Source: a virus (taxonomy: Duplodnaviria > Heunggongvirae > Uroviricota > Caudoviricetes). From it: a stretch of DNA of 20,554 nt. This document shows positions 20,159 to 20,554 of the stretch, piece by piece; position 1 is the first letter of the stretch; each line of letters begins with the position of its first letter. The translations under genes were made by a program, and so were the position numbers. The notes under the pieces are model-generated. The model was not told the DNA's origin, searched no databases, and saw nothing but the letters and a program-made list of their open reading frames with translations. Where the stretch lies: the IMG/VR virus record IMGVR_UViG_2541047172_000030. The stretch is one strand, 5' to 3'.

Positions 20159-20226
20159 TAGTATCAAATAAGTTGCGTATCGGCGTTTTTCAGCGGTATC
20201 AAATGAAATGCAAATCGGTATCAAAA
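20159..20226 (+). repeat. Three direct repeats of GTATCA(AA) with G/C-rich left flanks: candidate transposase-binding sites at the prophage right end
   Basis: GTATCAAA occurs at 20161-20168, 20196-20203 and 20218-20225. They lie immediately downstream of mom, where Mu carries its three right-end MuA-binding sites; the last copy ends in CA at 20222-20223. Confidence 0.4.
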
Positions 20227-20554
20227 AAATCGCCGCGCTATAACCGGTTCGCTATTCCTGACCTATGACATTCATAACATGCCAGGCAATAACACACTGA
20301 CGTTTGGCGGTGGTGGACATTGCGTAAGCCGTCGTTCGGCAACCAATGGGGCTGACTATTATCTGCCAGGCTATTTCGTTGCCGATGCCTTCGCCGCATA
20401 CAAAATGAAATTGCAGTATCCGGTCACACTGCAATTAAACGTCAAAAACCTGTTTGATAAAACGTATTACACCTCTTCCATCGCCACAAATAATCTGGGG
20501 AATCAGATTGGCGATCCGCGTGAAGTGCAATTCACGGTGAAAATGGAATTTTGA
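20224..20554 (+). pseudogene. 3' fragment of a TonB-dependent outer-membrane receptor gene (host), truncated at its 5' side by the prophage
   Basis: Frame open from 20207 to the stop at 20552-20554; the ORF track reports 20279-20554 from an internal Met. Product ends ...LQLNVKNLFDKTYYTSSIATNNLGNQIGDPREVQFTVKMEF with the terminal aromatic residue typical of beta-barrel receptors. About 100 aa remain, far short of a ~700-aa receptor. Confidence 0.6.

Follow-up and report, generated by a model that had tools for sequence, protein, structure and literature searches.

Introduction

Phage Mu (Muvirus mu) inactivates genes by near-random transposition, carries three transposase-binding repeats per end, the outermost of which are equidistant from the termini, begins with TG at its left terminus and has early genes in the order repressor-ner-A(-B), with a Gin invertase and com and mom at the right end. 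The reported target-site duplications are 5 bp for Mu and 6 bp for phage B3 (PMC8705779). Sp18 of E. coli Sakai is a Mu-like prophage that appears intact, does not circularise and is efficiently packaged (PMC2669165), and Sp18-type phages occupy strain-specific loci among O157 and Shiga toxin-producing E. coli (STEC) strains; for example, Phi804-3 of strain FRIK804 lies between prpD and prpE (PMC7430833). The fit system, on the other hand, is an accessory iron transporter under repression by Fur and FitR (PMC2593036), and according to a 2022 paper nothing functional is on record for its receptor FitA beyond domain content (PMC9409007). Here, we analysed a stretch of DNA of 20,554 nucleotides (IMG/VR record IMGVR_UViG_2541047172_000030, Caudoviricetes; hereafter the window), which holds the right part of an Sp18-type prophage followed by the 3' end of fitA. 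With a probability of about 95%, an Sp18-type Mu-like phage has integrated into fitA by a simple insertion with a 4-bp target duplication, leaving a receptor that is most probably non-functional.

The closest relative is Sakai Sp18 itself, which is 99.9% identical over the window's 20.2 kb and differs by 16 mismatches in the 3.15 kb of the left end; both copies have the termini TGTAACC...GCGCTATA and a 4-bp duplication, and both split a host gene into two pseudogene pieces, but the target in Sakai is sorM (ECs_4942/ECs_4999) and here it is fitA at codons 611-612. Two other Sp18-type phages have come to rest in different surroundings: Phi804-3 is intergenic and the Mu-like phage of LC727881.1 is located inside an Stx2c prophage, whereas the present copy interrupts, and most probably knocks out, a host iron-receptor gene. 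Sp18-type phages share with Mu all of the features listed above but differ from it in a transposase that is only 22% identical to MuA, in a right terminus of TA instead of the near-universal CA, in a duplication of 4 bp instead of 5 bp and in ~3 kb of extra cargo between gin and mom. As in the published fit locus (Ouyang and Isaacson), fitA is divergent from fitB, C, D, E and fitR; unlike the published gene, the O157 allele described here is interrupted by a prophage.

Results

The two halves of fitA

At the right end of the window, a plus-strand reading frame runs open from 20207 to its TGA at 20552-20554, has its first ATG at 20279 and would encode 91 aa with the C-terminus ...FTVKMEF. The last 312 nt are identical to Sakai fitA (0 mismatches) and comprise codons 611-713 (103 codons) and the stop. 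When positions 20100-20554 were compared by megablast with 5,426 complete RefSeq E. coli genomes, matches began only at query base 144, which is window position 20243, and fell in a gene annotated as "TonB-dependent siderophore receptor" in O157:H7 strains and as fitA (ECs_3917) in Sakai; no single place in any of these genomes covered the phage-fitA junction. The 103-aa fragment matches the last 67 positions (370-436 of 436) of Pfam PF00593 (TonB_dep_Rec_b-barrel) with 28.2 bits against a cut-off of 27, and positions 550-649 of 649 of TIGR01783 with 74.5 bits (E = 7e-21), the latter score being under the whole-protein cut-off of 223.5 as expected for a fragment. The C-terminal aromatic residue of the beta-signal is present. 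A first-pass annotation of the sequence had described a final open reading frame (ORF) with an outer-membrane barrel C-terminus and about 100 codons before the phage end repeats, and it was right on both counts; of the span that it had assigned to the remnant, 20207-20554, the open frame was correctly read, but host DNA begins only at 20243, and the first 12 codons of the frame, 20207-20242, belong to the right end of the phage.

The window matches contig AVSC01000107.1 of the draft E. coli assembly GCA_000462665.2, and the other half of the gene was found in the same assembly on the contig numbered just before it, AVSC01000106.1 (L005 in our locus numbering). This contig carries, in order, fitR, fitE, fitD, fitC, fitB, fitA nt 1-1834, the phage left end TGTAACCAGG..., the repressor and ner genes and a Mu-type transposase gene, where it ends. 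The protein expected at the left junction was predicted for duplications of 0-6 bp and looked up in a collection of 15 billion proteins, in which only the 4-bp prediction, FitA residues 1-610 followed by Thr-Val (...HTV), exists exactly, as the 612-aa ERD48082.1 of E. coli B17. The 5-bp model (FitA1-610+TGVTR) and the models with 0, 1, 2, 3 or 6 bp were rejected, their junction proteins being absent from that collection. Once one copy of the duplicated ACCG is removed, the 5' half and window 20247-20554 rebuild the intact Sakai fitA base for base, and the host flanks agree with Sakai over 2170 bp upstream and 4000 bp downstream (0 mismatches). The accessions of the 91-aa ORF are named for E. 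coli B15 and that of the 612-aa product for E. coli B17; the junction proteins are present in two NCBI assemblies, and the 612-aa one is also present in Logan re-assemblies of reads. The event is a simple insertion at the native fit/parE locus in an O157:H7-like background rather than a deletion, and the 3' end is neither a duplicated piece nor a small gene in its own right. The proposal of the first-pass annotation that a prophage had split a TonB-dependent receptor gene is borne out by the two halves, the receptor that it left unnamed is FitA (ECs_3917, 100% identity), and the 5' portion lies beyond the left prophage end as it supposed. The other case that it had envisaged, an intact shorter gene starting in phage DNA, does not apply, the upstream codons being the phage end and the halves rejoining to fitA.

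Phage ends and target-site duplication

The left junction reads ...CGTCATACCG/TGTAACC and the right junction ...GCGCTATA/ACCGGTTCGC. The left ACCG copy (L005:11831-11834) directly precedes TGTAACC, and the intact Sakai site contains a single copy (CGTCAT-ACCG-GTTCGC). Besides this fitA copy, seven further Sp18-type insertions were examined from which both junctions were extracted (Table 1); junction positions were read at window 20235-20246, at L005:11831-11842, at L002 2961-2980 and 41715-41735, and in L006-L017. An exact 4-bp direct repeat and identical termini, TGTAACCA...GCGCTATA, were found in 8/8 independent insertions; beyond the right terminus, the host DNA differs among the eight, and the fifth base, just outside the repeat, agrees only at chance level (2/8 on one side and 3/8 on the other). 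The duplication expected by the first-pass annotation is present at the junctions, but its length is 4 bp and not the 5 bp that had been suggested for a Mu-type element. Phage ends shifted by one base, which would give a duplication of 5 or 6 bp, were also considered and are ruled out by the neighbouring host bases, which vary among the eight insertions, and by the outermost end motif, which stands 18 nt from both termini only when the element is read as TG...TA.

The termini are not of the 5'-TG...CA-3' form, since all eight copies have TG on the left and TA on the right; Mu's own right end reads ...GCTTCA. Three transposase-binding-type repeats, GTATCAAA, lie at 20160-20168, 20195-20203 and 20217-20225, and the motif TTTGATAC occurs 18, 113 and 165 nt from the left terminus and 18, 40 and 75 nt from the right one, the two ends being in inverted orientation. 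The end repeats noted in the first-pass annotation are thus real and mirrored by three at the left end, and three repeats per end is the logic of Mu L1-L3/R1-R3. The element works like Mu with a different stagger and, in duplication length, is not of the Muvirus type; such a stagger is plausible for a transposase that is only 22% identical to MuA and nearer to other types. We regard it as likely that the 4-bp duplication and the TA right terminus are real and general in the Sp18 lineage. No description of a 4-bp duplication by Mu-like or Sp18 phages was found in the literature that could be searched, which is a partial library and no proof of novelty; the paper on SfMu does not discuss duplications.

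A 13-bp motif, ATGAGCGCTTAAA, was also observed once near each phage end in direct orientation (window 20111-20123 and L005:11929-11941). The left copy lies 95-107 nt from the left terminus, and the right copy includes bases of the mom stop codon and is also the 5' arm of a hairpin, GAATGAGCGCTTAAAAACTCATTC, at 20109-20132. The motif could be a host-factor site, a regulator site or a product of chance.

The fit locus and the intact receptor

In Sakai, the intact fitA (ECs_3917) is 2142 bp long, encodes 713 aa and is divergent from fitB/fitC and convergent with parE. The divergent genes upstream encode an ABC ATPase, two FecCD permeases, a periplasmic binding protein and a regulator with HTH_6 and SIS domains; parE lies downstream. 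The Plug domain PF07715 covers residues 72-168 of both the intact FitA and the 612-aa truncated product (62 bits, cut-off 23.9) and is encoded on the left-junction contig, outside the window. Intact FitA scores 239 bits with PF00593 and 376.5 bits with TIGR01783 (cut-off 223.5), and none of the ligand-specific equivalog models for FhuA, FoxA, FhuE, Fiu and FecA was passed; the nearest solved structures are FetA, FoxA and FhuA (E about 1e-44 to 1e-49). The split receptor is FitA, the outer-membrane TonB-dependent siderophore receptor of the fit iron-uptake locus. In the literature found, neither a ligand of FitA nor a phage or colicin using it is reported (PMC9409007, PMC2593036).

In other E. 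coli, fitA is split at a different position into ORFs of 575 and 110 aa, which are members of the protein clusters P0012 (STI72390.1, 575 aa) and P0018 (STI72389.1 and others, 110 aa; 131 contigs). This second split implies that fitA has been independently pseudogenised in other lineages and fits dispensability of the gene.

Gene content and distribution of the prophage

Window 1-20242 has full-length matches at 99.9-100% identity in 208 of the 5,426 complete E. coli genomes, among them Sakai "prophage Sp18, Mu-like phage" at 99.9%, and represents the right-hand ~20 kb of a transposable, Mu-like prophage of the Sp18 type. Its called genes include the Pfam families Phage_Mu_Gp45, GP46, Baseplate_J, Phage_Mu_Gp48, Caudo_TAP, Resolvase/HTH_7, Zn_ribbon_Com and Mom, and the hallmarks of a Mu late region are all present, namely Mu-type baseplate and tail genes, a Gin invertase and com/mom. 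The mom-like gene is annotated in Sakai as "DNA modification protein" (ECs_4998). Window coordinates are obtained from those of locus L003 by adding 10278. An Rfam scan of the whole window gave 0 matches at the gathering score. On the left-junction contig, the transposase gene (L005:13056-14986) lies next to the repressor and ner genes and matches PF09299 (Mu-transpos_C) and, weakly, PF02316 (HTH_Tnp_Mu_1). The transposase of Sakai Sp18, standing in for the copy of this strain, has an E-value of 5e-11 with MuA at the 22% identity given above and is nearer to D3112/JBD-type Pseudomonas phages (~30%) and Klebsiella phage Kp4852-3 (40%).

Integration takes place at many sites, with eight insertions at eight loci, and the listed hits among the 208 genomes fall at widely different chromosomal positions. 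Genes are often split, as in the case of sorM, ydhR, dcuC, fbpC and a DUF2534 gene, which agrees with the claim of the first-pass annotation that insertion of the Mu type is near random and often inactivates genes. The Stx2c-converting prophage record LC727881.1 includes an "inserted Bacteriophage Mu-like phage" with a transposase (hit at 72336-74423) that is 99.4% identical to that of Sp18. Other prophages are thus targets of the Sp18 phage as well, and its insertion could inactivate or mobilise them.

Between gin and mom, a 679-aa gene at window 15956-17995 (+) encodes a SASA (sialate O-acetylesterase-like) domain and a DUF6645 domain. It is hypothetical in Sakai (ECs_4993), Mu has no counterpart at this position, and it looks like cargo, possibly a surface-carbohydrate-modifying or receptor-destroying enzyme. 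From there to com/mom, window 18142-19108 holds three small genes of lambdoid-prophage type as further non-Mu cargo. An invertible host-range region occupies 13269-15856, with the tail-fibre genes in opposite orientations beside the invertase (Table 1); some complete genomes align to the window in two pieces, which fits a tail-fibre segment that is flipped in some strains.

The draft contigs break in or at the prophage: the window begins within a protease/scaffold gene, L005 breaks off in the transposase gene, and contig AVSB01000101.1 (L004), with its start at window 20154, reaches just 89 bp into the phage right end. Breaks at these points mean that the phage sequences behave like repeats in the B15/B17 genomes and suggest more than one copy of Sp18-like or related prophage sequence there, and replicative transposition might have produced several copies, that in fitA among them.

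Table 1. Features of the window (window coordinates) and further Sp18-type insertions with both junctions extracted
Feature	Position	Strand	Remarks
Right ~20 kb of Sp18-type prophage	1..20242	+	head/tail genes, invertible tail-fibre region, gin, cargo, com, mom
Tail-fibre gene	about 13323-14234	+	invertible region
Tail-fibre-assembly and small tail-fibre genes	14269-14790 and 14870-15073	-	opposite to tail-fibre gene
Gin-like serine invertase	15296-15856		adjoins tail-fibre genes
DUF1378 gene	18142-18324		cargo before com/mom
DUF826 gene	18360-18605		cargo before com/mom
154-aa ORF	18644-19108	-	cargo before com/mom
com-like gene, 66 aa	19223..19423	+	Zn_ribbon_Com PF10122; called gene L003:8945-9145
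mom-like DNA modification gene, 245 aa	19377..20114	+	last phage gene; PF25680 Mom, L003:9099-9836
Phage right end (attR-equivalent)	20115..20242	+	three repeats GTATCAAA; terminus ...GCGCTATA-3'
Right copy of 4-bp target-site duplication ACCG	20243..20246	+	fitA nt 1831-1834
3' remnant of fitA	20243..20554	+	100% identity to ECs_3917 nt 1831-2142; C-terminal PF00593/TIGR01783 matches
91-aa ORF within fitA remnant	20279..20554	+	ERD42831.1 / ERD47826.1; gene-caller annotation
Sp18-type insertion, Sakai	in sorM		duplication TAAA
Sp18-type insertion, SS TX 313-1	in ydhR		
Sp18-type insertion, PV0838	in DUF2534 gene		
Sp18-type insertion, M1300706002	in fbpC		
Sp18-type insertion, 97-3250			
Sp18-type insertion, FRIK2455	in dcuC		
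Sp18-type insertion, F1 E4	in prophage tail gene		

Discussion

The arrangement of the two junctions points to strand transfer by a DDE transposase, with the two joins in fitA staggered by 4 bp at nt 1831-1834 (codons 611-612). The phage lies between fitA nt 1834 and 1835 with 0 host bases lost and ACCG duplicated, its left end towards the 5' half of the gene and its mom end towards the 3' remnant. The 5' piece codes for FitA residues 1-610 plus Thr-Val, with the stop inside the phage left end, and the 3' piece for the last 103 residues. The truncated FitA(1-610)-TV would keep the signal sequence, the plug and about 18 strands but would lack ~19% of the barrel, or roughly 4 of 22 strands (an estimate from length proportion and profile coordinates only), including the C-terminal Phe. 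A C-terminal aromatic residue is needed for beta-barrel assembly that depends on the beta-barrel assembly machinery (BAM). Without its last strands and the terminal Phe, the product should not fold into the outer membrane, which would make the allele effectively null, and FitA function is very probably lost. The FitBCDE inner-membrane transporter would then be left without its cognate receptor, and no polar effect on neighbouring genes is expected because fitA is monocistronic and parE convergent.

Several points weigh against this interpretation. The prophage was not recovered in one piece, contig AVSC01000106.1 ending 3.15 kb into the phage and the contig of the window starting ~18.5 kb in, and the middle ~15 kb of the prophage in the B15/B17 genome is assumed. 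The duplication of 4 bp rather than 5 bp departs from textbook Mu, yet it is consistent across eight insertions. The loss of function draws on general knowledge of beta-barrel assembly, and whether a second intact fitA copy exists was judged from the junction contigs alone. This last point bears on the idea that only the 3' fragment was duplicated and that an intact fitA elsewhere in the genome leaves no function lost, an idea to which the ability of replicative transposition to produce rearrangements also lends some credit. We consider it very unlikely, as the fragment sits at the native locus, running from fitB-E/fitR to parE in the Sakai order with flanks that are 100% identical, and the 5' half is there too; moreover, the 2007 complete genomes that match the junction query do so at a median of one place per genome (the fitA 3' end among the matches listed). 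Extremely unlikely is a mis-assembly in which an end of the phage was wrongly joined to the 3' end of fitA in a repeat-rich draft while fitA is actually intact. Contig ends do fall within or beside the prophage (contig 106 stops in the transposase gene, the contig of the window starts in a head gene and AVSB01000101.1 starts at the 89-bp position given above), but both junctions exist, are reciprocal and bear a precise phage-typical 4-bp duplication, the two halves rebuild fitA exactly, the junction ORFs occur in two separate NCBI assemblies and one of them also in Logan re-assemblies, and a chimeric join would not fall exactly on the phage termini on both sides.

The 91-aa ORF could also be taken for an independent functional small gene with its start in or near phage DNA, the more so as GenBank annotates ERD42831.1 and ERD47826.1 as "tonB dependent receptor family protein"; the chance of this is next to nil. 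The ORF is a 100% in-frame match to the fitA 3' end and lacks a signal peptide; the 28 nt ahead of its ATG contain nothing resembling a Shine-Dalgarno sequence, and a promoter and terminator scan of 19300-20554 gave nothing above shuffled expectation pointing to expression of the remnant. By exact-sequence look-up, it exists only where the insertion does, on three contigs of the two NCBI assemblies GCA_000462665.2 and GCA_000462185.2 (E. coli B15/B17-type). The 91-aa ORF is a by-product of the fitA split and not a gene of its own. A further question is whether the insertion, rather than being a neutral accident of transposition, was positively selected, e.g. as an escape from a phage, colicin or sideromycin entering via FitA. 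TonB-dependent receptors are common entry points for phages and colicins, and the allele is common to at least two isolates, but the isolates could just be members of one clone, none of the 5,426 complete genomes carries the allele, and Sp18-type phages hit many unrelated genes. FhuA is an example of such an entry point (PMC10373560), but no agent using FitA is reported in the literature found (PMC9409007). Positive selection is, in our view, very unlikely, and the changes in siderophore uptake or in phage or colicin resistance that the first-pass annotation attached to loss of the receptor are, for FitA, a matter of conjecture.

Together, these data make the fitA insertion an instance of a well-known process, the disruption of a gene by an Sp18-type Mu-like prophage in STEC, and an ordinary knockout. 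In all likelihood it costs the strain Fit, one accessory and redundant route of iron uptake, and its biological weight is small. For annotation, ERD48082.1 (612 aa) and ERD42831.1/ERD47826.1 (91 aa) represent a single pseudogene in two parts, and neither part should enter a gene count. What departs mildly from the textbook is only the 4-bp, TG...TA signature that the Sp18 lineage shows. Because phages of this type are frequent in STEC, the 4-bp scar and the TG...TA termini matter for calling prophage boundaries and for strain-typing markers, and, if the signature holds true, tools that look for a scar of 5 or 6 bp could mis-call the ends of the Sp18 group.
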